Under the pieces are notes generated by a model. It saw only the letters and a list, made by a program, of their open reading frames with translations, ran no database searches and was not told where the DNA came from. From assembly GCA_951406725.2 (NCBI GenBank), contig OX597815.1, positions 36,084,001-36,148,000 of the forward strand: a stretch of 64,000 nucleotides of DNA. Direction: 5' to 3'. Below, piece after piece: positions 10,149-59,267 of this stretch; within the stretch, counting starts at the first letter, position 1; every line of letters begins with the position of its first letter. Made by a program: the position numbers and the translations under genes. The DNA is from Octopus vulgaris (lineage: Eukaryota).

Positions 10149-10273
10149 TTTTTAAAATCGTTCGTAAAGAATCCACTACTGGCAGGATCATTAGCTATGT
10201 CAGCTTCGCCACTGCCGGTCGAGGATGGAGGTTTATCATTTCCATATGACATGTGTAGTCCGTTGCCAGCCAT
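10149..10273 (-). CDS. AP3B1: AP-3 complex subunit beta, coding exon 1 (MAGNGLHMSYGNDKPPSSTGSGEADIANDPASSGFFTNDFK...)
   Basis: ATG at 10273-10271, 125 nt, GTAAGT donor, phase 2. Joins exon 2 in frame to give [17 protein letters not shown], matching the beta-3 adaptin N-terminus. AP3B1 vs AP3B2 cannot be resolved. Confidence 0.9.
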
Positions 10274-10467
10274 ATTCTGTCTCCTTTTAAGAAAATACTT
10301 TCACCCCGTGTAAAGAGAATACGTTCACTTGTGCAGCTTTCTTCGATAGATGAAGTCTCACCTCATTTCTCAAACGTATCTTCTAATGCTTCTCTTTTAC
10401 GCTCAAATATCCAAGCTGCTACTTCTATTTTGCTTCGAGCGACTCTCCTATTATTTTCCTAACCGAG

Positions 10468-10489
10468 AAGATGGCAGATACCGGAAGTT
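10468..10489. promoter_or_regulatory. AP3B promoter region: YY1-like AAGATGGC plus ETS site ACCGGAAGT
   Basis: aagatggcagataccggaagtt lies about 200 nt upstream of the ATG in a locally CpG-richer segment. Motif match only. Confidence 0.45.
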
Positions 10490-10949
10490 ATCGGCCACAT
10501 TTCTTGTTTTCTCTTCAACACTTTCCGACATCTGTTCAGTGTTCAGCAAGTCTTATCATTATACAACGTTTGTTTGTTGCTTCTCCTTCTCATCTCAGAA
10601 CTAGAAGGAAGAAATTTAAAATACAATGTAATTAGCCAAACATTAACTCAGTCGCTTTCAGACAAACAGCGATTTTTCGAAGTGGTTGTGACGTATTGAA
10701 GTGACAGTGGTAGAGAGGATATTGGCACGACATGCCAACGTATATGAGATATAATGAGAAAAACGTTATCCCACCGTCATCGTGTTGTTAAACTACAGTC
10801 AATGCAAAGAGTAAGAAGGGAGAGATGCAAGGAATTGACAGTCCAAAATTAAAAAGCTAAAGACAGTTTATCATAGATGATAGTTATTTATTATTCGCTG
10901 ACGAATTTATAATTTTCTGTCGAGAGTATATAGAGACCTATCTCCCTCC

Positions 10950-17633: not shown

Positions 17634-18110
17634 CATCTGTATGTCACTGGATTCAAGTCGAAAAAGCTTGAACAATACTTTTGCCAATCTCTCGGTCGTC
17701 ACAGAAGGTTCCAGGAGCAAGCATTGCAAGAGGGCAGGTGCGATTTTGACTGCAAGTTTTATGTATGTTTCACCTAGAAGAGCTGCCTCTCCGGCGGCTT
17801 TGTCATAAACAATGGGAGCTTCGTCTACCTTCGGAAAATCTACTTAACTTATAGATGAGGTTCTGGCGGCTATTACTCAAGAAATGACCGTAACTAAGGG
17901 GTGACGCCACGCTCCTCACAACTCCAGAACTCTCTAACTGGAATCTTACCACCGAATACAGGTTAATTTTATACCCGGGGTATACACACATCGTTACATA
18001 TATACGCACATATACTTATGTATATTTGTGCACTCGTGTGTGTTGTGTGTGTGTGTATTTGTGAGTGCGAGCGTGCATGCGTTCACGCATCTCTAATGGT
18101 ATCACTTGGT

Positions 18111-18374
18111 AGGGCGGCGAGCTGGCAGAAACGTTAGCACGCCGGGCGAAATGCGTAGCCGTATTTCGTCTGCCGTTACGTTCTGAATTCAAATCCCGCC
18201 GTGGTCGACTTTGCCTTTCATCCTTTCGGTGTCGATAAATTAAGTACCACTTAAATTAAGTATCGGTGTCGATAAATTAAGTACTGGGGGTCGATGTAAT
18301 CGACTTAATCCGTTTGTCTGTCCTTGTTTGTCCCCTCTGTGTTTAGCCCCTTGTGGGTAGTAAAGAAATATATA
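18111..18374 (+). mobile_element. tRNA-derived SINE, family B (Nin/Deu-like core, Tx1-like tail)
   Basis: B-box-like gttctgaattcaaatcc; core tttcatcctttcggtgtcgataaattaagtacc; tail ...gtagtaaagaaata; 17-bp TSD taat(g/t)gtatcacttggt at 18094-18110 and 18375-18391. Confidence 0.88.
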
Positions 18375-18597
18375 TAATTGTATCACTTGGTTTAAAAGCA
18401 CAAAATAAACTGCTAATGAAACGTTAATAAGTGTCTTTCATGTGGTCATTTACGAAAATAAATGGAAAATAAAGGCCACGCTTACACAGCACATTCCCGC
18501 ATATTTAACCACTTACAATTTTTATTTATAGAAAGTAAAATTATACTCTTTCAAATAATGTAAGTTTAAGCTCGAAAATTTGAACTAGCAGTACTTA

Positions 18598-18988
18598 TCT
18601 ATATATATAAAGCTGAAGTTGTCTGTGTATGACAGGTTTGGTAACCTTCAACTAACACTATCTCCTCCGAGACCCTGCGGCACAAGTTGACCAAAATTGA
18701 GAGTATGATAGAAGAAGGCTTGCTCTTCCTTCCGTAGAAGAAAAATTTCAAATCGGACCATGTTAACACAAAAAAATTATTTACACCAAAAAGGCGCTTT
18801 TTTTCTATGAAAATCCCTATTTTTTACGATTTTTTTACTGCTGTGTCACAATTTTTCGGTGTATTTCAACCAGAAAAATGTTCACTTAAAGAGAATAACA
18901 AGCTACATAATGCAAAATTTCTACTTTTCAAAAATTCCAATTCTAAAGGGTCGAAACAAACCCGAGCAACGCCGGGCGATACTGCTAG
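18598..18988 (+). mobile_element. Non-autonomous Helitron (391 bp)
   Basis: Inserted at A|T; 5' TCTATATATATAAAG; subterminal hairpin CCCG(A)GC-AAC-GCCGGG at 18961-18976; 3' CTAG. Confidence 0.85.
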
Positions 18989-19241
18989 TGGATAATAAAA
19001 GACCGCAAATGTGAACCACTCTTATAATTGAAGTTTTTAGAATAAGTTGATTGGTTCGTTTACTTTTTATGTAAGGGAGAGAAGCACGTGGGCATTGTTT
19101 ATGTTTATTACAGAAGACAGAATGCATAAATACATGTCATATACATTCTCATGTACTTAATATTTTATGATCTTTTACTTCTATTTTAGGAAAGCAGACG
19201 GTTAATGACAAATTCATTATATCATCCAATGATCCGTTTTG

Positions 19242-20258
19242 ATGGGTAAACGCAAAAGCTTATCATCAGAAACACGATCGAGAATTGTCCAACTGCATAG
19301 GCTGAAGTGGACTTTTAGAGCCATAGCTGCTGATGTTGGGTGCTCTGTGACTGCTGCTCATCATGCTGTGGACATCTTCAATGAAACTGGTGGCTATTCT
19401 GATCGTCCTCGGCCAGGGCAACCTCGGAAAACCACGGAACGGATGGACCGGTACATTCACCGTTTATCGACAACGGACAAGAAAATGACTGCTGTTGACA
19501 TTTTGAAAAACGTTCGACAGAAATATCAGAAGCAGATTTGTATCACAACCATAAAAAACAGACTAAAGCAGTTTGGACTTGTGGGGCGTGTTGCTCAGAG
19601 AAAAACTTATATTTCCCTGAAAAACCGATGTGCCCGCATTCAGTTCGCCCAGGAACACAAGAACTGGACATCCTCGGACTGGTCAAAGATCTTATGGTCA
19701 GGTGAGTCGAAATTTAATTTGTCCAGCTCTGACGGCCGAGTGTACATCCGACATCGTACAGGGGATGAATCAGAGTGTATGAATCCGACAGCTAAATACG
19801 CAGATGACAGTGTCGTGGTTTGGGGTTGCATGTCAGGAAAAGGAGTCGGTCCCATTCATCAAATCAAGGGCATCATGAACAGTACGGCCTATGTGGAGAT
19901 CTTAGATAAGGCTATGCTTCCATATGCCAAAAGTCATTTAGAACGGTCGTGGATTTTTCAGTATGACAACATACCTAAGCATGCTGTAAGAACAATCAAG
20001 GAATTCACAAAAAGCAAGAAAATGCAGGTGCTACAGTTACCAGCACAATCACCAGATTTAAATCCAATTGAAAATTTATGGAAACGGGTCAATATGAGCA
20101 TTCAACAAAAGCAGTCTTGGACATCGACTGAATTGTATGATTATATAGTAAAAAAATGGCAAGAAATTCCAGATAATGTGATAATTAATCTTATTGATTC
20201 AATGCCTCGTAGATGTGATTCTGTTTTGAGAAATTTTGGATACTTGACCAAATATTAG
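19242..20258 (+). CDS. Tc1-like transposase, intact 338-aa ORF; DD34E triad with first Asp replaced (WSGESKF)
   Basis: N-terminal HTH region, GQPR (GRPR-like), VVVWG, QYDN, SPDLNPIENLW and SMPRR motifs; 34 residues between the second D and the E. Confidence 0.9.
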   Translation: MGKRKSLSSETRSRIVQLHRLKWTFRAIAADVGCSVTAAHHAVDIFNETGGYSDRPRPGQPRKTTERMDRYIHRLSTTDKKMTAVDILKNVRQKYQKQICITTIKNRLKQFGLVGRVAQRKTYISLKNRCARIQFAQEHKNWTSSDWSKILWSGESKFNLSSSDGRVYIRHRTGDESECMNPTAKYADDSVVVWGCMSGKGVGPIHQIKGIMNSTAYVEILDKAMLPYAKSHLERSWIFQYDNIPKHAVRTIKEFTKSKKMQVLQLPAQSPDLNPIENLWKRVNMSIQQKQSWTSTELYDYIVKKWQEIPDNVIINLIDSMPRRCDSVLRNFGYLTKY

Positions 20259-20847
20259 TGTTATATGTTTTTATTCTTCTTTAAAGCACACATTCCATTT
20301 TCATTAAAAAAATTGTTTTAAATGTTCTCACATTAAGTGATACTCATTTGTGTGGCGTTATTAATGCTGTCAGTAATTTGTATTTTGGGGCTTAAACTAT
20401 CATTTAAAGGAGTAAAATATTGTTTCTCTTCATATATGGTAAGTGGTTTAATAGAGATAATGTTTCATCATCAGTATGCCCTTGTCTTTAAATTAAGCGA
20501 TACCACTCATTCTGTGTGAGTGTGCATATATATAAATAAATTTAAATAATGAGGGTGATAAATTGAATATTAATTTAATGAACATCAATTTAAAACCAAT
20601 AACCTAGCATATAGAAAAATCTGAAAATTCAGAAAAAGTGTAATACATGCGTATTATACGCATGTATATACATATAAATCTTTTCATCATACGAGTACCT
20701 TTTTATCATCCCACACTCTACAAATACATACTTTCTTCCTATCCTTTTCACTTTCCTGCCTTTCTACATTTACAACTTCCCCTATCTACCAAAACCTAAT
20801 CATTCACATTACTCCAGTCACCAGCCAAAAAAGAACCAAAGTAAATC

Positions 20848-20890
20848 ACAGTCTGATGAAGGTAAGCAAGCTGAAACTTCAAATCACTGT
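20848..20890 (+). ncRNA. Minimal type I hammerhead ribozyme motif (Penelope-type), stem III mutated
   Basis: acagt-CTGATGA-ag...ct-GAAA-cttcaaa-TC-actgt; stem I acagt/actgt. Confidence 0.65.
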
Positions 20891-21204
20891 CAACATTTTC
20901 CCTGTAAAAGTTAATGAATATGTGTGCCACTAAAATGTATTAAGTAAATCCTTCAGTTTAATTCTAAATTGTTTTTATATATAACTTGACATGAAAGCAA
21001 GTATTAACATATGTGTGTGTGCATGCACTGCTCAAGAGTTGAAAATCTCTATGTTCTAATCTTTATCTAATTCACATATGACTTGACACGCTGATTGTAT
21101 TGACCAAGCAATGATGTTAAGGTTTCTTAAACATGAGAGGAGAAATTGTTTTACAGAAAATGTGGAATTCTTTGTGGTTTTTAAAGGGTAAAATAAGAAA
21201 AATT

Positions 21205-22345
21205 ACTCTCATGGAATGTGAACAAATGAGGTTTATTTTTTAGCATAGACCCCTTGCAGTCCATATACTTCCATCAGTGTTTGGATCCCTTTGGTGAAGC
21301 TTTCATCCTGTTCATCAAAAAAGTCATCATCACTGTGATACTGGTTCCCAGTGCTTTTTCATGTTGGGGAGCAGATAATAAACAAATAGGGCCAAATCTG
21401 GAGAACAGGGAGAAATATTTGCCTCAGTCATGCACTAAGGACTTGTGTGCTAGAGCATTGTTCCGACTAAGGACTTGTGTGCTAGAGGATTGTTCCAACA
21501 AAACAAGACCCCTTTCACCAGTTTTCCTGGATGTTTGATTTTGAGAGCCTTTTGTAACTGCCTCAGCAAGTTGGCATAATACTCTCCATTGATGGTGTGG
21601 CCCTTTTGAATATAGTCAGTAAACGCTATGCCCTTTGATCCCCAAAAAACTGAGGCCATCATCTTCCCTACGGAAGAAACAACCTTGGCCTTCTTTGGAG
21701 CAGGTAAGAAGGGGTGTTTCCACTGCATGGATTGTCTCTCACTCAAAATGATGAAGCCAACACTCAACCTGAATTGGGAAATGTTCAAGGAAACCAACTG
21801 GATCTGCCTCAGTGTCCGATTTTCCCGTGATGTGATCAGCCTAACGTGCTCTGGATCAGGTGTCATAAGATGTGGCACACAACAAGCACAAACCTTTGTC
21901 ATACCAAGTTCATTTTGCAGGATATTCTCAACTCTCTCATGGGATATGCTAATATCATTGACTATTTGGTTTATAGTCAATCACCTGTCATCCATCACCA
22001 TGTGATGTCCAGACCTTGGATCATCTTCAGGACTTTCTTTTCCCTACCTAAATTCAGCTGCCCACTCTTCCACAGTTGATAAAGCTGGAGCATCATCCCC
22101 TAATATAGTAACCATGTCAGCATGAATGTTCTTGTGGGCTAAACTCTTTCTCTGTAGGTAGTTGATACCACAATGCCAAATTTCTTGATAAGTCACTAAT
22201 TACTTCTGAAGTCTTCTTTGAACAGTCAGTAATGGAAAGGAACAATGCAGTTATTAATGAGAGTTGAAATTAATGCATGCAAGATTTCACAGCTCTAGCA
22301 TTACTCCTTTATAGTCAGCCTATGAACTTTACAGCTGCTGTCCAT
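21205..22345 (-). mobile_element. Mariner-family transposon, decayed (same family)
   Basis: MASVFWGSKG and TINGEYYANLL motifs; homologous to 6607-7882. Confidence 0.88.
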
Positions 22346-23687: not shown

Positions 23688-24290
23688 CTGACTTCAGACA
23701 GAATGGTTTTAAGCAGTGTCAAGTTTTACAATTCTGTAAATAATAATGGTATTTTTTATAAGCTTAAAGTGATCACTGTGCAAATGACTAAAGAAAATAG
23801 TCTAATAATGGGGCACAGAAGTCCTTGACAGAAAAAGTAAGCTTTCCCATATGCATAGGACTCAATCCAAAGTCCCTTTGTTAACACGACTGTTCCTTTA
23901 GACCAGCCAGAGACTACATCTCCCTAGTACATTGCCTTTAGCATGATTAGATGCTCTTCCTAACATCAACCATACTACCGTCTACTAGTGCATTTGACTA
24001 TTTTACTAGTATTGAGGCTGTCATATCCTTGGCAAAATTGAAGGGCTCTTTCAATTCTATGGTGCCTGTTTCTTATCCAATATATATCTACTTTATAGCA
24101 TAATTTGAAGTTTAAACATACCTTAGATTAACTAGAAATAAATTGAAGCTAACTGCACAAATTTGTTTCATCATTACAACAGAGTAATTAACATTTTACT
24201 CAGCATCAATGAGTACTTTCCTACAAGTTGGACTATATGTATCAAATCTCAATAAACTCGAAAAAAAGTGAACAGTACAAAAGGCATTGT

Positions 24291-24306
24291 TTTATTAAGT
24301 TTTATT
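24291..24306 (-). terminator. Tandem AATAAA polyadenylation signals of eIF3g
   Basis: tttatt at 24291-24296 and 24301-24306, about 130 nt past the stop codon. Confidence 0.6.
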
Positions 24307-24433
24307 AATGTTTCACATGTCAGCTGCAGCTGACTGTTGTGGGTACTATTTAATGCAATAAAATGTTTAGGCAGCATCATCAAGAGAACACCTAAAATGT
24401 GTGGGAGTCATCAACTTCTACAACACACAGCTA

Positions 24434-24452
24434 TCAAGATGTTACAGACGGC
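24434..24452 (-). CDS. EIF3G: eIF3g last coding exon (K-PSVTS-stop); total CDS 873 nt, 290 aa
   Basis: ttgcAG acceptor, then G CCG TCT GTA ACA TCT TGA TAG. The nine exon lengths sum to 291 codons. Confidence 0.9.
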
Positions 24453-24586
24453 CTGCAAAGAAGAAAACATCAAATTTAAAAAGACAAATATTTTTTGTAC
24501 AACATAAACAGAGTATGAATGAAAAGAGAAGAAATTTCCAGAGAGAAAGAGAGAAAGGGACTAGAAAAAGTCATGGTTGAACTTAC

Positions 24587-24693
24587 TTTGCCCATTCAAC
24601 ATTAAGAATCAAGTGGTCATAACCATAGCCAGATACTCCAAGAATAGCCCGAGCAGCATCTTCACGACGATGAAAATTGATGAAAGCAAAACC
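24587..24693 (-). CDS. EIF3G: eIF3g coding exon 8 ([36 protein letters not shown])
   Basis: atcAG acceptor, GTAAGT donor, 107 nt; RNP1 KGFAFINF spans the exon 7/8 junction. Confidence 0.97.
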
Positions 24694-25743
24694 CTGATCA
24701 GAGAAAAGAGAAATTATTAGAAAACCACGAGACAACTGTTAGATAAGTGCAGATGTAATGTTTCCACAAACATCAACACCACATATTTTATATATATATA
24801 CACAAAGTTCTCTATTCCAGGGACCAAAAAAGCAATAAGAAATAGAAGAAAATATAAGCTTAATGTAACACTTTATAATCCTGAGTATACCTGTCAAAAA
24901 ATGTTTTGAAAAGCTTTTCTTGAATATAATTATTCTATATCTCAAGTTCAAATAATTCATGTCGCTTTACAAGTGGTAATTTTCTTTGACTTTTTCATCA
25001 TACAGTAACTTATATTTTTTTTAATTTTTTACTTTTATCATTTCAAACACTGTTACAAAGCGATAAATTCGTAACAAACTGATATTTATTTTATCAAACC
25101 AAAGTGTATGAAAAGCTAAATCAGATGAATATGGCATTTTATTTAGTACGTTAACATTTCTGCGATAGATGTAGTATTGTTGAATGAATCTCAGTTCATC
25201 TCCAACACTTGTTTTAATCAAACCATCAGGAATGAAAGTTAAAGTCAAATCCATCCAGCACTATTTTAACTCAGAATGTAAGATGACAAAAATAAATACA
25301 ATAAAGTATTTAGTTTGGTCTTTTACCATTTCTACAATACTTATACAAGTATTTGTGATATTTTGTGCATCAAATTTTCCACTAGTTGATGTTTAAAAAA
25401 AAAAACATGATTTTTTTTTCATTACTTAGTTTCTGATATAAAATGTGTATGGAAAGTATTAAAGCTACCAAGTTTCAATATCTATGAAATGCACATTGAA
25501 ATATGTACGTCACAATACAACTACTCAATATGGGTTTACTGTGTTACACAGCTGTATATTTATGCCTCCCATGAATAGTTTTAGTAGTAGCACAGTTAAC
25601 TGTTATAATCAAAAAATCATAAATCAATCAATTCTATTAGCTTCTAACATGTTTTAAGGTTTTAACTTGATTTTCAATTTTAATAGACATGCACATAAAA
25701 GTTAGCAGAATTAAAAAGAGAAGAAAAACAAAGAAAATCTCAC

Positions 25744-37122: not shown

Positions 37123-38455
37123 ATGGCAAACTCAGAGAGAGAAATAGCAGAATCTGAAATCCGTGAGCCAAAACCATCATCAGACCTGGAGTCGGACACG
37201 GACAAAAGGAAACCAGTAGCAAGAAGGATTATAGCGGCACCAAGCTTCGAGGCAGGTGCCGTGAAAGAAACACTGAACTTCGCAGCAGCGGCTGGAGGGA
37301 AAAGACGGAGATATGCCTAGAAAATTTGGACGCTTTAGAGCTGTACATCACAAGGTCCGGATCAGAGACCAAAATGATACAACCCAGGGAGACACAAGAG
37401 GACGTCGAACGGAGAACAGTAATCTTTAAAACATACAATGTCAAAGAGAGAAAAATTGGGTTCTCCACTGAAAACCAAGTAGAGAAGTGCCTCGGTCCTG
37501 TATGGGACAAAATAAAATTTATTTCCAGAGGGAAAAAATTTGCCACGGTCGAAGTGAGGTTCGGCACAGTGGAAGAAGCTAGACTCCACTCAGTGGAACC
37601 TCTGAAGTCGGATGAGATTTTCCTCCTACCTATATATATGGGCAGAAGGACCACAAAAGTTACAATCACAAGGATCCCTCCCGAAATAGAGCCCGAGAGA
37701 CTGGTGGCGGCCGCAACCTCGGGCCTCAGGGAAAAAATAAACATAATCAGCGCGGTGGTGGAAGAAGCAAAATTCTGGGTCGGCCAGAAAGTAACTATCA
37801 CACTGCAGGCCGAACCAGCCACCTTAGATGAGTTCACCGAGGTGATAGATATCAGTGACAACCGCTTGTCAGTCATGGTGGAAGGTCGCCAACCCAGGTG
37901 TTTCCTATGCGGAAAAAAGGGACACATCAGGAAAAACTGCGAGCCGGCAGGAATAGGCAGAACAGCAAAATGCTCAACCTCTGCCGAAACCTCTGCTACT
38001 CCAGCAACAGTAGAACCAACAACGTCAACACCAGAGGAGAAAGAAGGGGAGGGATGGACAGCCGCTGCCTCAAAAAGAAAGCACAGGAATCCATCCCCGG
38101 AAAAAGGAAAAGCCGAAGGAAAAAATGGGACATCAAAAAGGCAAAAAAGCCGGAGAACAACAACAACGCTTTCGTCACGATCCGGACGGTTGACAGTGAG
38201 GTGATGCGACGTGTAGAAACACAGCACCTACAAGAGATAGAGGTGGAAGACCAGCTAAAGAAGGATCTAATAAAGATCTATAAAATAAATCACAAAGCCT
38301 ATAATGTGCTGGCGAACGATTTCAGGAAGGATGTGGGCCCTCTGCAGATGGAGGTCTCGAACCGCCTGTACGAGGGCCTGATCCAGCCGAACCCACGAGA
38401 CCCGGTCGAAGAGGAGGCGGTTACCCCCCGCCCGGACTCAGTAGGAGCAAGGTGA
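37123..38455 (+). pseudogene. Tx1 ORF1 (gag-like, CCHC knuckle CFLCGKKGHIRKNC), apparently split over three frames
   Basis: ORF pieces 37105-37320, 37326-38204 and 37898-38455; CX2CX4HX4C motif. Confidence 0.8.
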
Positions 38456-38462
38456 GTGATTT

Positions 38463-41400
38463 ATGGCTGTTCAAGTAGGCTGTATAAATGTGCGTGGCCT
38501 GATGACGAACTGGAAACAGGGGCGTTTTCTGAATGACATCAGGTCACACAATTTAGATATTGTTGTAGCTACTGAAACTCGGTTAAAAGGGCCAAGAGAT
38601 CTACTCCCGCTCCTAAATGGCTATGAGAGATATATCTCTCCATGTCGGCAGGGGGGCGGAAGTGGGGTGTTGGTCCTACTTAAAAGGAATAGAGTTTCGG
38701 AGAAAAAGGTGATTTTTGTTGACCCAGAGGGCAGACTGGTCGTTCTGGATCTGACATTCAGTTGTGGTAAGGAGATCAAGCTGGTGGCGGTGTACGCACC
38801 CCAAACACAACAGACTGATTTCTTTCGGGGCCTGGAGAAATTTTTAGGGACGTCAAAATCCATAGTGATGCTAGGGGACTTTAACGCTATCGTCGATGCG
38901 CGTGTCGATAGTGGTGGCTCCAAAAACAATAGGACACCTAACAGTGACTTCCGTGATCTGCTGAGTCGCTTCCAGCTAGTAGATCCATACAGACTGGAAT
39001 TCCCAACGCTCCACTGTGGACGTGGTCAAATAGCGACGGGTCTTCCAAATCTTATATAGATAGGATTCTCATTAGAAAACTAGACAAAGACATAGTTAAG
39101 TGTCCACTGTTCCACTTGGTCAGCTACAGCGACCACAAGATGGTCACGAGTAAGCTTTACTTAGATAACGTATGTAGAAGAGGAACCGGTTACTGGAAAC
39201 TCAATAAGTCCCTTCTGGCGATTGAGGAGTACAGAAACCGGATTAGGTTACTAATCCAGAGGGCGTTAACCGGTTCCATTCTCAACAATAAATGGTGGTT
39301 AGCGCTCAAGAGAGCCATAAAATACGAGTCCATCAGATATAGCATAGGACTAGCAACGAAAAGGCGTAAGAAAGAAGAGGGACTAGCTAAAGCTCTAGAA
39401 GAAGCCATAAGGTCTGGCGATGGGATCCTGGTGAAAGCGAAGAGACTGGAATTGAACCAGCACCTCGAAGCCAAACACATGGGTTGTATCGTCAGGGCTA
39501 GAATCCGCGCAATGGGAAGCGAGGGTACTAAGGCCGCTAGATGGGCACGAGTTGTGGAGGCTCAACACGGAAATGATTCCACAGTCAAGTCTGTGACGAA
39601 CGAGAAGGGTGATGTGGTAAGCGAACCAGAGGAGATGTGTCGGACCTTTCAGGAGCACTTCGCCCACCTTTTCGGGGGCGGGGGTGGACCTCACGGGCCT
39701 CCTCGCCGGGTTGCCACGCCTCTCGGAGTGGGGGGCGGAGAGCTGTGAAGGGTCAATCACACTTGAGGAGATTACGGAGGCCATAGCTGACTGTGGCAGA
39801 GGTAAGGCACCGGGACTCGATGGTTTACCCTACGAATTATATAGAAGTATGCCAGACTTGTTCGGGCCAATATTGGCCAGCGTCTTCGCGAACTGGAATC
39901 AGAATGGGAGGATCCCCAGATCTGTACGCCGAGGAGTGGTGACGCTGATCAGGAAAGACCTGGACAAGGCGGACAGAATAGATAATTTTAGGCCCATCAC
40001 CCTGCTAAACGCAGAGGTGAAGATTTTGGCCAAGGTATTGACGAAAAGGTTGACGCGTGTCGCGAAAGATCTGATCGGGGAGGCACAAACCTGTGCAGTC
40101 CCCAAAATAACTATTCAGGACAATCTTCACCTCATACGTTACACCATAGAAGGGTTTGAGAATAACACTGGCAAGGGTGGGGCATTGGTCCACTTAGACC
40201 AGAGTAAAGCATTCGATAGGGTGAACCATCGTTACCTGGAGTCTGTGCTCGCACAGTTCGAGCTGGGTGCCGGCTCCCTCAGGTGGATCACACAGTTATA
40301 CGACAACATCGACTCGATCGTACGGGTGAATGGTCTGCTTTCTAGGCCATTCCACATCAAACAGTCAGTTCGTCAAGGGTGTCCGCTCTCCCCGCTTTTA
40401 TACGTGATGGCCCTCGAGCCATTACTGCGAAAGCTGAGCGTCATCCCGACGAACCTAGGAGGTGGAGGTTCTGTTACTGCGTATGCGGACGATATCACCA
40501 TCATCGTGACCGAGGTGGAACTCCTACAGAATGTAGGAAACACCATCAAGGAGTACGAGGCGGTGACAGGAGCAAAAATCAACCAGGAAAAGTCAGTCGG
40601 CTTGCAACTCGGCACCTGGGTTGGCAAGCCGATGCCTTCGAACAGCATCGTGGGATGCTGGATGGAGGGCCCGGTTAAATTGCTAGGGGTCTGGTTTGGT
40701 CCAGGCCTCCAGATAGAAAAGAACTGGTCCGAGGTCACGAGCAAGGTGGCTCACGCGGTCAGGACTTGGTCTTGGCGGTGGCTATCCTTGAAAGGAAGGG
40801 CGGAGGTGGCCAATGTTTTCATGGCATCGGTCATCATATACTGCCTAACCGTCGTCCCCTGTCCGGATTCGTGGGTGAACAAGTTGAAAAGGCAAATCTT
40901 TCGCTTTTTGTGGAAAGGTTCCACTCCTCTTGTGAGACGTTCTATCTGTTGTCAAAAACCGTTAAAGGGTGGGTTAGGGATGCCTTGGCTGTTGATGCGC
41001 AGACATGCGCTGAGGTTAAGGCATCTTTGGCTCTACCTGGAAGGTGAACGGGTGTGGTCCCCGCTCGCAAAACGGACGTTCCCCAGCTTTGCCAGTTTTG
41101 GTGGTAGAGTTTCGTCACAGACTAAGATCAAGTATGTGGTATTCGGAGTGCCGGAAGGCTCTCGTACGCTTCCGCAACTCGGGCAATGCCGGTGGCTTTG
41201 GTACAACCGCAGCATTCTATAGCAGGTTGGTAGAGGCCGGAAATGACGATACCCTGGGAAGGACCCTGGGTCTCGATGGTAATCAGTTGGACAGCCTGTT
41301 CCAAAGGACATTCAGACCAGGGACGCTGGATAACTTTCAGAAGTCCCTGGCCTGGCAGTGTTACAGAGGAGCCTTACCCGTTCGAGATAAACTCACAAGG

Positions 41401-41826
41401 CTTGGTCACAGTGGACCTTCGGTCTGTCCAAGATGCGGATAGGATGTGGAAACAGTCCTGCACGCCATTGTTAAATGTCCGGAGATTTCGGAAGTGTGGG
41501 TTTATGCCGAACACCTGTTGTCGGACGAGGGAAGAGTACAGCTGTCGTCTGAGTCAATCTTTAAAATTGACCCGCCTGGTTTCATGACGAACGAAGGTAA
41601 GCATTGCTTTCTCGCGACAGTAGCAGTTGCGAAAGAGGTTATATGGAAGACTAGAGTGAAAGGTTTAATGTCAGACACCATGATCTCTGGCACCGCCCTA
41701 ACGAACTTCTTCAGGTTCCATCTGCAGAGGAAGGTGGAGCTAGAGAAATGGTGTCTGTCAGAGTCTGTATTCAAAAAAAGATGGATGCATGTAGCACGGA
41801 TGCTGGGTGTGAAAGGCCCTGCATGA
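38463..41826 (+). pseudogene. Tx1 ORF2 (APE endonuclease + reverse transcriptase + C-terminal Cys/His motif), frameshifted
   Basis: INVRGL, VYAP, GDFN, SDH, GYWKLN, APGLDGLPYE, FRPITLLN, DQSKAFDRV, RQGCPLSPLLY, AYADD and CPRCG*..ETVLH...C motifs; at least three frameshifts and one stop. Confidence 0.92.
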
Positions 41827-55980: not shown

Positions 55981-56445
55981 AAGACCGCGGATTCTGCCAC
56001 CCATGAAGTCATTGCCATTGGGGTACCAGAAGACATGGCTGATCTTCAGGCTTTTGCTGCCAACTCAGCCAAAGACCTAGGCTGCGTTCCCCCAACGGGT
56101 GCTATCCGCCTTGGACGACCTGGCCCAAAACCTAGGCTCATCAAGTTGTCTTTTACGGACCCCACTGAGGCAACCTCTTACCATCTGGCCTCAGTTAAAG
56201 CTGGGCGGGAAAATCGGACCACCTTCCGAACACGCCCAGGCTTACCGTCCGATGTACGTCCGAAGCTACGTGTAGTGGCTTCCCTGAATAGGAACTCAGC
56301 TCTACAGGAAAGCTTCAGTCTTCAGGAAGATGGACAAATCTGGAGATTTGTCAAGACTGCTGAAACGTGGAAGAGAGATACCAGCTGGTCTGAGTGCTCT
56401 CTACCCACAATAACTAAAAAGACTACAGCAACTCAGGGAAACTAA
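55981..56445 (+). CDS. LINE ORF1 C-terminal part (VIAIGVPE...IRLG...PRLIKLSF...QGN*)
   Basis: The GVPE, RLG and PRLIK motifs are typical of CR1/L2/Jockey-group ORF1; the frame is open from 55912. Confidence 0.7.
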   Translation, partial: KTADSATHEVIAIGVPEDMADLQAFAANSAKDLGCVPPTGAIRLGRPGPKPRLIKLSFTDPTEATSYHLASVKAGRENRTTFRTRPGLPSDVRPKLRVVASLNRNSALQESFSLQEDGQIWRFVKTAETWKRDTSWSECSLPTITKKTTATQGN

Positions 56446-59267
56446 GCCAGAACAACCTGCCATCCTCTACACACCATCATAAACTGCGAGCAGGGTACAA
56501 ATTGTTGTCCTTAAATGCTCGCAGTTTATGCAACAAAATACATTTGTTCAACGCCTACGTCAGAAGTGTTGACCCTGACTTCATCACTGTCACGGAAACA
56601 TGGGCGCATTCCTTACTCTGTGATGGGGTTTTCAACATTACGGGGTACAACCTCTTCCGTAAGGACCGCACTAACCGCCGTGGTAGTGGTGTGATGGTCT
56701 ACGTTCGTTCAAATTTTTTGGTAATTCCTTGTGCCGATTTGAACGAATCACAAGAAGAAGTTTTTTTCTGTGACGTGCGTATGACCATGTCAACACTCCT
56801 GCTTGGCGTTGTTTATCGTCCCCCAAGTTACCATCGGGACACACAGCTTTGCAATGTCCTCCGAGCTGCTGCCAGGAAAACAGCCACTTATGTGTTTATT
56901 GCAGGCGATTTCAATCATCCTGAGATCGATTGGGAGACCTTCCATTGGCCACAGAGTGCAAACGATTTTGTTGAGCTTGTGCTGGACTCAAACTGGTCAC
57001 AAGTAGTCACCTCTCCAACAAGAGGCGACAACACCTTGGACCTGCTCTTCACCACAACTCCTGAAGCGGTTATCAATTGCACTACGGAGGAACCTCTAGG
57101 TGACTCTGATCATGCTATGATCATCGCCAATCTGGCTCTTGCGGGCAACAAAAACCTGAACCATCTCCAATCTGCTTCCTTCGATTGGAAGAGAGCAGAT
57201 TGGAACCTGTACCACACTGAACTACAGCACCCAAACTGGCGTGAATTCTACAACTCTGGAGATGTGAATACTATACTCCAGAGTATCCTGGACTCAATAT
57301 GGGCAGCATGTGCCACATCAGTGCCACGTAAACAAAAAAAGAAGAACCGCCCCAAAAGGGCAATTTGGGAAACTTCAGCGGTCCGACTTGCCAGGAGGGA
57401 ACGTCGGACTGCTGAACGGGAATACAGGTTGCATAAATCAGACACCAACAGGAAGAAGCGGAATAAATCCTCCAACCATCTCAAGCAAGTGACAAAAAAA
57501 GCAGTGCTTGAATTTGAACAGTGCATAGCAGCCAATCCTGACAGCAAGGTTTTCTGGAAATATGTGCACTCAAAGCAGAGACCTCACTCTCCAGTGGGCC
57601 CTCTTCGCAACCCTCACACAAACCAGATCACTGACGACCCCAAGGAATGCGCAGAACTCATTGCCGAGTGCTATGCAAACATATTCACTGTTGAAAGTCA
57701 AAATGTACCATCTTCACCATCACTAACAGCAAACTCCATAACAACTATGGAATTTACACCTGCAATGCTGCGACGTCACCTTCAAAATAAGCGCAACTAT
57801 GCCTCCCCTGGTCTCGATGGAGTTACATACCTGCTTCTCAAACGTGGCAGGCACTTCCTTTTACACCAGCTTTCTATTTTCTTCCAGTACTGTCTCAACA
57901 ATGGTGCTACTCCGGAGCAGTGGAAAACTGCCAGTGTCATTCCTCTGTTCAAAAAGGGCGACCGCACATCACCTGTCAACTATCGCCCAGTCAGTCTCAC
58001 TAGCTGTATTGCAAAACTGATGGAATCGTGTGTCAGAGAAACACTCTGGAACTTCTGGAGCTCTCACAGTCTCATCCGACCCTCACAATATGGATTTGTC
58101 CCTAACTCCAGCTGCAGTGACCAGCTTGTCGAGTTCCTTGAGGACATTACTCAGATTACTGACAGTGGCTCATGGGTGGATGTTGTCTACCTTGACTTTG
58201 CTAAGGCTTTCAACTCTGTGCCACACAAAAGGCTTATGGTGAAACTCTCTGCAATGGGTGTGGGGGATGACCTTTTTAACTGGTTGAAATCCTTCATCCT
58301 CAGCCGAAAGGAGGTAGTCACAGTTCTAGGACAGCACTCTACACCATATGAGATGTCATCGGGTGTACCACAGGGATCTGTCCTTGGTCCCCTCTTGTTT
58401 GTGGCATACATTAACGACATAGATGCCAATTTAAAGAATGCCACAGTATTGAAATATGCAGACGACATCAAGCTGTACCTTGAAATCAAGAGGACAGATC
58501 CTGATGTCTACAACTCTTTCCTGCAATCAGACCTAGACACAATGCAGCAATGGATCACAGACTGGCAACTGAAACTGGCTGTGGACAAGTGTACCACCAT
58601 GCATTTTGGGAGAAAAAACCCTGCGTTCACTTACTCCCTCCACAACACTGATATCAAGAAATCCTCTTGCGAGCGTGACCTAGGCATCACTGTCAGCAGT
58701 GATTTGCGTTGGTCAAAGCATATCTCTAAGATTGTCAGGAAGGCCGAGGGTGTCTTGGCATCACTCAGCAGGTCTTTTGTTAGCCGCTCTCCAGCCATCT
58801 ATTTAAAACTGTATACAGCTATGGTACGACCACACTTGGAATTCGCATCATCAGTTTGGAACCCCTATCTTGCACAGAACATTGACCTCCTGGAATCTGT
58901 CCAGAGACGTGCAACCAAACGCATACCCTCCATCAGACACCTACCATATTCTGAGCGCCTTGTTTCCCTGGGCATGGATTCACTGAAGCTCCGGCGTTTG
59001 GCGACGGACTTGGTAAACACCCACAAAGTTATCAACCACCTCACCAACAACAACACTGAACACCTTTTTGATCTCCATGTGTCTAACACACGTGGACATG
59101 CCTACAAAGTCAGAAAACAATACAGCTCCCATGACTTTCGGAAACATTTTTTCACGCTCAGAGTTGCTGAAGCATGGAATAAACTGCCTGCGTCAGTTGT
59201 TGACTGCCATGACACTGCATCTTTTAAGGCCCTCATGCTTTCCGAAATCCGCCGAAACTACACCTGA
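56418..59267 (+). CDS. LINE ORF2, uninterrupted: APE endonuclease + reverse transcriptase (no AUG before the first endonuclease motif)
   Basis: LNARSL, VTETW, VYRPP, GDFN, SDH, NYRPVSLT, LDFAKAF, GVPQGSVLGPLLF, YADD, RPHLEF and WN motifs; frame open from 56418, after the TAA at 56415-56417. Confidence 0.95.
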   Translation, partial: KDYSNSGKLSQNNLPSSTHHHKLRAGYKLLSLNARSLCNKIHLFNAYVRSVDPDFITVTETWAHSLLCDGVFNITGYNLFRKDRTNRRGSGVMVYVRSNFLVIPCADLNESQEEVFFCDVRMTMSTLLLGVVYRPPSYHRDTQLCNVLRAAARKTATYVFIAGDFNHPEIDWETFHWPQSANDFVELVLDSNWSQVVTSPTRGDNTLDLLFTTTPEAVINCTTEEPLGDSDHAMIIANLALAGNKNLNHLQSASFDWKRADWNLYHTELQHPNWREFYNSGDVNTILQSILDSIWAACATSVPRKQKKKNRPKRAIWETSAVRLARRERRTAEREYRLHKSDTNRKKRNKSSNHLKQVTKKAVLEFEQCIAANPDSKVFWKYVHSKQRPHSPVGPLRNPHTNQITDDPKECAELIAECYANIFTVESQNVPSSPSLTANSITTMEFTPAMLRRHLQNKRNYASPGLDGVTYLLLKRGRHFLLHQLSIFFQYCLNNGATPEQWKTASVIPLFKKGDRTSPVNYRPVSLTSCIAKLMESCVRETLWNFWSSHSLIRPSQYGFVPNSSCSDQLVEFLEDITQITDSGSWVDVVYLDFAKAFNSVPHKRLMVKLSAMGVGDDLFNWLKSFILSRKEVVTVLGQHSTPYEMSSGVPQGSVLGPLLFVAYINDIDANLKNATVLKYADDIKLYLEIKRTDPDVYNSFLQSDLDTMQQWITDWQLKLAVDKCTTMHFGRKNPAFTYSLHNTDIKKSSCERDLGITVSSDLRWSKHISKIVRKAEGVLASLSRSFVSRSPAIYLKLYTAMVRPHLEFASSVWNPYLAQNIDLLESVQRRATKRIPSIRHLPYSERLVSLGMDSLKLRRLATDLVNTHKVINHLTNNNTEHLFDLHVSNTRGHAYKVRKQYSSHDFRKHFFTLRVAEAWNKLPASVVDCHDTASFKALMLSEIRRNYT

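Follow-up and report, generated by a model that had tools for sequence, protein, structure and literature searches.

An intact, single-copy Tc1 transposase frame beside eIF3g in Octopus vulgaris: evidence for purifying selection and a probable host gene

Within a 64,000-nucleotide stretch of the Octopus vulgaris genome (here called the window), one Tc1 copy carries an open transposase frame between poorly preserved ends. Why is this frame still whole, and does it belong to a transposon or to the host? A preliminary description, made from the sequence alone, had proposed a domesticated host gene that binds DNA. We are highly confident that the locus holds a domesticated protein-coding gene. We further think it probable that purifying selection preserved a single Tc1 copy when the rest of its family had died, and that its product now serves the host as a sequence-specific DNA-binding protein without catalytic activity. 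The single copy, the constraint and the old ends bear out the proposal of domestication; host function and DNA binding are inferred.

The frame and its active-site lesions

The open reading frame (ORF) at 19242..20258 on the plus strand comprises 338 codons. The frame list and its translation contained zero stops and zero frameshifts, and the frame is open throughout, as the preliminary description had stated. A profile search with the 338-aa protein detected the Pfam domains HTH_Tnp_Tc3_2, DDE_3, and HTH_SB, with DDE_3 scoring well over its cut-off. The HTH region covers residues ~1 to 114 and is followed by a linker and an RNase H-like domain containing G154, D242, and E277. D242 and E277 are retained and are separated by 34 residues, which gives the D-(34)-E spacing. 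With its paired-like HTH domains, DDE_3, this spacing and IR/DR ends, the protein is assigned by its sequence to the DD34E lineage of Tc1 transposases, IR/DR type. Among solved sequences it had one match, the catalytic domain of Sleeping Beauty (SB), and its predicted structure (pLDDT 83, pTM 0.59) was nearest to SB and Mos1.

The preliminary description had also noted a dead first Asp, KYADD in place of the usual KHGGG, and a short in-frame deletion. An alignment with 19 homologues reproduced all three. The first catalytic Asp is replaced by Gly154 (codon GGT at 19701), KYADD occupies residues 185 to 189 where the homologues read KHGGG, and a 2-codon in-frame gap lies near codon 175, where sibling copies are longer by 3 to 6 nt. 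Among columns that are conserved across 113 homologues as well as in the consensus of the element's own family (family A, defined below), the ORF protein has lost 1 of 23 in the N-terminal region and 4 of 45 in the catalytic region, the latter being D154G, G187A, G189D, and W266L. These losses are concentrated around the active site (D154G, the glycine strip, and W266L). In SB, the equivalent positions are the catalytic D153 and a glycine strip that adjoins the target site (PMC4820933). The catalytic triad of the ORF protein is incomplete at G154, and an active autonomous Tc1 would have all three residues. Residues 32 to 54 show at most one difference from the family A consensus, and the DNA-reading region of SB falls within this interval (PMC7827188). 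Taken together, the near-invariant reader and the active-site losses suggest that the fold and the DNA reader were kept and that the chemistry was likely lost.

An in-frame TGA at 19230 lies 12 nt before the ATG and the contigs at the locus are unspliced, so we rejected a host-transposase fusion of the SETMAR type. A search of a protein collection returned no close longer protein, which is weak evidence on fusion to a host protein.

Copy number and selection on the frame

A DNA search of the 2.8-Gb genome with the element gave 45 matches including itself, with zero near-identical copies, and the next-best protein match in the genome was 54% identical and carried 5 stops. This count, a check suggested in the preliminary description, establishes that the ORF is single-copy. 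For the comparison with siblings, one duplicate locus was excluded beforehand and 51 loci were aligned; 8 with <240 bases and 2 from another family were dropped. Of the 41 loci used, 32 were old siblings, here called family A, and 9 were copies of a younger relative, family B. The family A consensus was the majority of the 32 siblings, with the ORF copy left out, and was seeded from window-anchored alignments.

Compared with this consensus, the ORF copy differed at 26 of 108 4-fold sites (0.241) and the siblings at 491 of 2067 (0.238; p=0.91). This equal divergence indicates that the ORF copy and its siblings are of the same age. At 0-fold sites, the ORF copy differed at 65 of 654 (0.099) and the siblings at 2857 of 12610 (0.227; Fisher p=1.4e-16). 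The 0-fold/4-fold ratio was 0.41 for the ORF copy and 0.95 for the siblings, or 0.40 and 0.92 with 55 CpG-prone codons masked, and single siblings ranged from 0.56 to 1.37 (30 siblings with enough sites). The NG86 ratio was 0.20 for the ORF copy and 0.40 to 0.95 for the siblings.

Per gene length, the siblings carried 13.0 frameshifts and 13.3 stops, an indel count that alignment noise may inflate, and the ORF copy carried 0. The chance of zero disablements in the ORF copy was 3e-12 by Poisson and 7e-6 for stops alone. Family B copies, which are 8.0% diverged from their consensus, already carry 12.7 disablements per gene, a rate of ~1.6 per 1% neutral divergence. Neutral drift of a few percent would therefore break the frame, and selection on it must have lasted until recently.

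The N-terminal half had a ratio of 0.37 (0.30 with CpG masked) and the catalytic half a ratio of 0.45 (0.56 with CpG masked). For the masked catalytic half, the within-gene test was not significant (p=0.24), and the ratio was far lower than that of the siblings (p=7e-10). Constraint covers the paired-like DNA-binding half as well as the RNase H fold and is moderate, with an average ratio of ~0.4. The preliminary description had set a retained N-terminal HTH region against a dead catalytic Asp; the HTH region is indeed retained, and the catalytic half is not in decay, as the RNase H fold is constrained too.

The ends of the element are as old as those of its siblings. When the consensus was rebuilt with the window left out, the TIR arms of the ORF copy differed from it at 29 of 187 and 37 of 155 positions (15.5% and 24%), inside the range of the sibling arms (n=37; 20.7%, range 11 to 32%). 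The comparison of TIR divergence with ORF survival that the preliminary description had asked for thus sets 0 disablements against ~26 expected. A young family with naturally poor TIRs was rejected, because near-identical copies are absent and the TIR arms are sibling-aged. The corrected 4-fold distance of the ORF copy (0.29) gives a rough date of ~80 million years; a substitution rate of 0.0036 per million years has been quoted for another octopus species (PMC13282606). Together, these data support the conclusion that purifying selection kept the ORF after its family died. Since constraint by codon position needs translation of the frame, this result is independent of the RNA strand question discussed below.

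The locus is present with its flanks in two further organisms, B and C, ~0.5% apart from the ORF copy. Over the 1017 coding bases, their ORF shows a single difference, which is synonymous, and 0 amino-acid changes, and the flanks carry 7 substitutions plus small gaps in 1210 bases. As the differences are common to both, organisms B and C count as one comparison. The difference between coding and flanking sequence gave p=0.078, or p=0.035 without two variants shared with organism A, a weak sign of purifying selection at this short distance; the synonymous difference is also present in organism A runs. Rows of X6 and X8 at 19508-19515 were excluded from the count, as they came from short extra contigs and not from the ORF-spanning long contigs. 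One low-depth X12 contig had a nonsynonymous change at 19306. Run X20 (share 0.07) yielded one uninformative 168-base contig at the gene's end, with 2 differences and a 6-base insert, and was dropped as a candidate distant orthologue because its match consists of that contig only. Three protein searches found no distant orthologue, the best matches being 50% (near-length), 49% (shorter), and at most 45% (longer) identical; the ORF protein itself is missing from the searched collection.

Element ends, neighbourhood, and RNA

By alignment to sibling copies, the whole ancestral element, of IR/DR type, spans 18094..20508 on the plus strand, with approximate ends. Its left TIR (18094..19045, plus strand) has ~200 bp of its own sequence and is split by a SINE (18111..18374) and a Helitron-type insert (18598..18988), both on the plus strand. 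The SINE (family D4, with a target duplication) hits the outer direct repeat and is delimited by read depth and loose ends; within it, at 18226-18284, 22 bp are duplicated at a spacing of 37 bp. The Helitron-type insert has TC...CTAG ends and a 3' hairpin, lies between A and T, and coincides with a pile-up that ends at 18989. Both are high-copy and read pile-ups stop at their borders, which corroborates the two insertions named in the preliminary description. The right TIR (20303..20508, minus strand) lies inside the transcribed stretch. Each TIR has an inner and an outer direct repeat, as seen in the family consensus and in the degenerate arms of the window.

With the inserts removed, the two TIRs, each of ~200 bp, are identical at 138 of 191 aligned bases. 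This 72% is similar to the identity in sibling pairs, some of which are other repeats; a self-comparison of TIR pairs, in which other repeats were mixed, gave none for the window. The low identity and the two inserts fit the earlier impression that the TIRs align only patchily. An active element would show near-identical copies and matched TIRs, and neither is found here. The accompanying claim that every other Tc1/mariner copy in the window is better matched held for three of the four (76%, 96%, and 81%); comparison of these copies found no clear TIR pair for the one at 21200-22330. This old mariner copy lies within the transcribed stretch, judging by the length of the X4 record, and contains a 32-bp tandem duplication at 21434-21497. 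A copy-specific insert of ~95 to 100 bp (19045..19145) was missing from 16 of 16 aligned siblings (13 informative) and had a single match in the genome.

The neighbours proposed earlier, AP3B and eIF3g, are largely borne out. The last exons of eIF3g, with its stop and poly(A) signals (24290..24696, minus strand), were located by exon matches to the right of the ORF, on which they converge, ending near 24290. AP3B exons on the minus strand lie just left of the window (Pfam), and its probable first coding exon (10151..10273, minus strand) is placed from an ATG, a donor, and its position. A CCGGAAGT motif and, near 10810, a donor-like AGA|GTAAGA on the plus strand occur just upstream of the AP3B start, in a segment (10460-10815) that may be a bidirectional promoter. 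The window also contains two LINE-type retrotransposons with long frames (37374-41587 and 56035-59267), the second of which bears an 857-aa endonuclease-RT frame.

Among 24 runs listed, 19 had at least half of the words, and 10 of those, from 3 studies, were guessed to be RNA. Contigs of 8 of the 24 runs were compared with the locus; the contigs are unstranded and the run type 'RNA' is itself a guess. X9 was labelled DNA by the same guess, and its small size suggests RNA. RNA-type contigs cover 19090..21240 in a single unspliced stretch and run on past 21240, to ~21600 (X1) and ~22300 (X4) as estimated from record lengths.

The preliminary description had suggested a spliced leader from a donor at 17962, in a CpG-richer segment, to an acceptor before 19190. 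Both motifs exist (the acceptor AG is at 19188-19189), but contigs of X1, X9, and X4 lend the leader no support: they run unspliced across 19189|19190 and extend 100, 100, and 50 bases, respectively, to its upstream side. The joint 17962->19190 is absent among the 11 joints listed. The donor segment is an old interspersed repeat outside the Tc1 element (17634..17990), with a sharp left border and 377 candidates in a repeat search, 40 of which were scored, at 68 to 79% identity over long matches. Bins 17656-18039 and 18424-18551 had zero cover in 4 runs, which does not prove absence. A leader from a far exon near the AP3B start was rejected, as no extra contig starts at 19190 among the loose ends listed (X1, X9, X12, X18, and X4; flat depth).

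Possible functions and known relatives

The most likely identity of the ORF is a lineage-specific, catalytically dead DNA-binding regulator, ~80 million years old. According to our model, the paired-like domain would still read the 18-bp direct-repeat core of family A, and the retained RNase H fold would serve as a dimer or oligomer scaffold. Sitting at remnant sites, the protein may act on chromatin or on transcription in the vicinity. Insertion of the SINE and the Helitron into the left TIR immobilised the copy. The core has 93 exact matches genome-wide, so any binding network would be modest or degenerate. A reversed-pattern control for the core was uninformative, because one unrelated repeat fills 100 listed of 777 matches. 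The right TIR as a query gave 5 genomic matches including itself, and a large young MITE network of this TIR was rejected.

The core is not confined to family A. The 9 family B copies examined (L008, L015, L018, L020, L023, L026, L039, L043, and L047) are ~67% identical to family A, have TIRs of ~230 bp, and are all broken, and their direct-repeat core is nearly identical to that of family A. A third repeat of ~1 kb, apparently non-coding, 81 to 88% alike and with no coding match to Tc1, has the same 18-bp core in its interior in 7 of 20 loci fetched (L070, L072, L073, L074, L077, L079, and L080) and is possibly a non-autonomous IR/DR element. The shared core allows another reading, which we consider unlikely, in which the dead transposase occupies or poisons complexes at related Tc1 ends and so represses later families. 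In its fuller form, which we likewise regard as doubtful, a full-length dead Tc1 was kept for ~80 million years as a 'transposon immunity' gene that binds the core common to family A, the later family B, and the third repeat. It would, on the same tentative footing, have suppressed their movement in trans, either before it took on the regulation of those sites or as it did so. Lesions that strike catalysis and target capture and spare the fold and the DNA-binding half are consistent with such a guard, and the site network of SETMAR has been discussed as a repressor of transposable element activity (PMC8994322). Conversely, the recognition helices of families A and B differ, and no intact copy of either was found among 119 candidates scored, yet organisms B and C still have the frame intact and without change. 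The threat therefore seems gone while selection continues.

The average ratio of ~0.4 would also suit a once-useful gene that is now relaxed, with the active-site changes as early decay and the RNA as nothing but minus-strand read-through from eIF3g. X1 and X9 contigs, from two studies, both end at 19090, which is a weak hint of a transcript end; X6 and X8 continue past it. The copy-specific insert has on its plus strand a CCAAT box (ATTGG at 19050) and CACGTG at 19085. On the minus strand, AATAAA occurs at 19109-19104, 14 nt before the shared contig end. The end fits either a promoter in the insert or a poly(A) site of eIF3g read-through, and by length the X4 record comes to within ~2 kb of the poly(A) signals of eIF3g. 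A leader starting at 19090 would contain 7 upstream ATGs, a further point in favour of relaxation; as 5 of them lie ahead of the proposed acceptor, a spliced form may occur in some tissue. Sense mRNA and read-through are about equally likely sources of the contigs, and the RNA part of this explanation, taken alone, stands at about even. The explanation as a whole is quite improbable. At ~1.6 disablements per 1% divergence, relaxation could be only very recent, amino-acid differences to organisms B and C are 0, and no poly(A) letters are listed at 19090.

We judge it very unlikely that selection acts on the RNase H fold for a role as a residual nuclease or a DNA-repair scaffold. The fold models well, and 41 of 45 highly conserved catalytic columns are kept, including D242 and E277; but Gly replaces D154, which is among the three ligands of the metal, and acidic residues stand in the glycine strip. 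In SB, the acidic changes K186E and H187D beside this strip abolish transposition (PMC4820933). Moreover, the DNA-binding half is at least equally constrained. A neutral survivor, or a younger cousin from another master copy with an inherited low replacement rate, is extremely improbable: the right TIR seemed younger in the window-anchored comparison (27 of 187 versus 507 of 2191 in siblings), but the rebuilt consensus puts both arms within the sibling range, the two TIRs are no more alike than those of sibling pairs, and near-identical copies are lacking.

The preferred reading, a catalytically dead DNA-binding host protein, has partial precedents. Like the IR/DR DD34E Tc1 transposases such as Sleeping Beauty (PDB 5cr4; PMC7827188, PMC4820933), the ORF encodes ~340 aa with paired-like and RNase H domains and DD34E spacing, and both have TIRs of ~200 bp that each contain an inner and an outer direct repeat (PMC7827188). 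Unlike Sleeping Beauty, the ORF copy is single-copy, lacks the first Asp and the glycine strip, has a left TIR broken by two inserts, and is under host-level constraint long after its family's death. The ORF copy is neither an active element nor a fusion gene.

Drosophila obscura-group LOC26532114 is likewise a near full-length, lineage-restricted, unfused Tc1/mariner gene that kept its HTH and lost catalysis; it has a dN/dS of 0.7 and an undetectable DDE domain, its 5' UTR contains an intron, and its promoter is shared (PMC13548663). In comparison, the ORF shows stronger constraint, DDE_3 well over its cut-off, and no intron seen. SETMAR, a primate Hsmar1 fusion, resembles the ORF in that an impaired transposase domain is kept whole under purifying selection, and its proposed role is dimeric DNA binding to TIR remnants (PMC8994322, PMC13548663). 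It differs as a mariner and SET fusion with a large site network, whereas the ORF is Tc1, has an upstream in-frame stop, and has few exact sites. Set against these two genes, the ORF combines a full-length, unfused DD34E Tc1 frame with constraint on both domains. The pogo-derived CENP-B/TIGD genes, including octopus CENPB-type factors, are also domesticated IS630-Tc1-mariner DNA binders, but of a different family with HTH-Psq/CENPB domains (PMC7325037, PMC10027918). In the text available, PMC10027918 names Tc1 once and leaves Tc1 DD34E genes aside. The TLEWI elements of bivalves form a separate intron-bearing group, which is reported absent from cephalopods (10.1101/656579).

The ORF has lost the features of mobility, is single-copy, and is under purifying selection relative to a sibling consensus, which are among the marks by which domestication is recognised in PMC13548663. 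It is a new instance of a domesticated Tc1/mariner gene; a literature search found no description of it, though the supplementary gene lists of PMC10027918 or PMC13282606 could hold it. The locus brings its own neutral control: the sequence from which the copy started, the rate of decay, and a predicted binding motif can all be read from dozens of dead, dated siblings. How a transposase turns into a DNA-binding protein of the host becomes directly testable in a cephalopod, as does the question of whether hosts retain dead transposases as a defence against related invaders. Domesticated genes from Tc1 proper are rare in comparison with pogo and mariner cases. The genome also contains a separate high-copy Tc1-like family (G000; for example L051, L055, L056, and L058) with frames of ~351 aa that are 32 to 35% identical to the ORF protein; many of its copies are without stops, which marks it as young.
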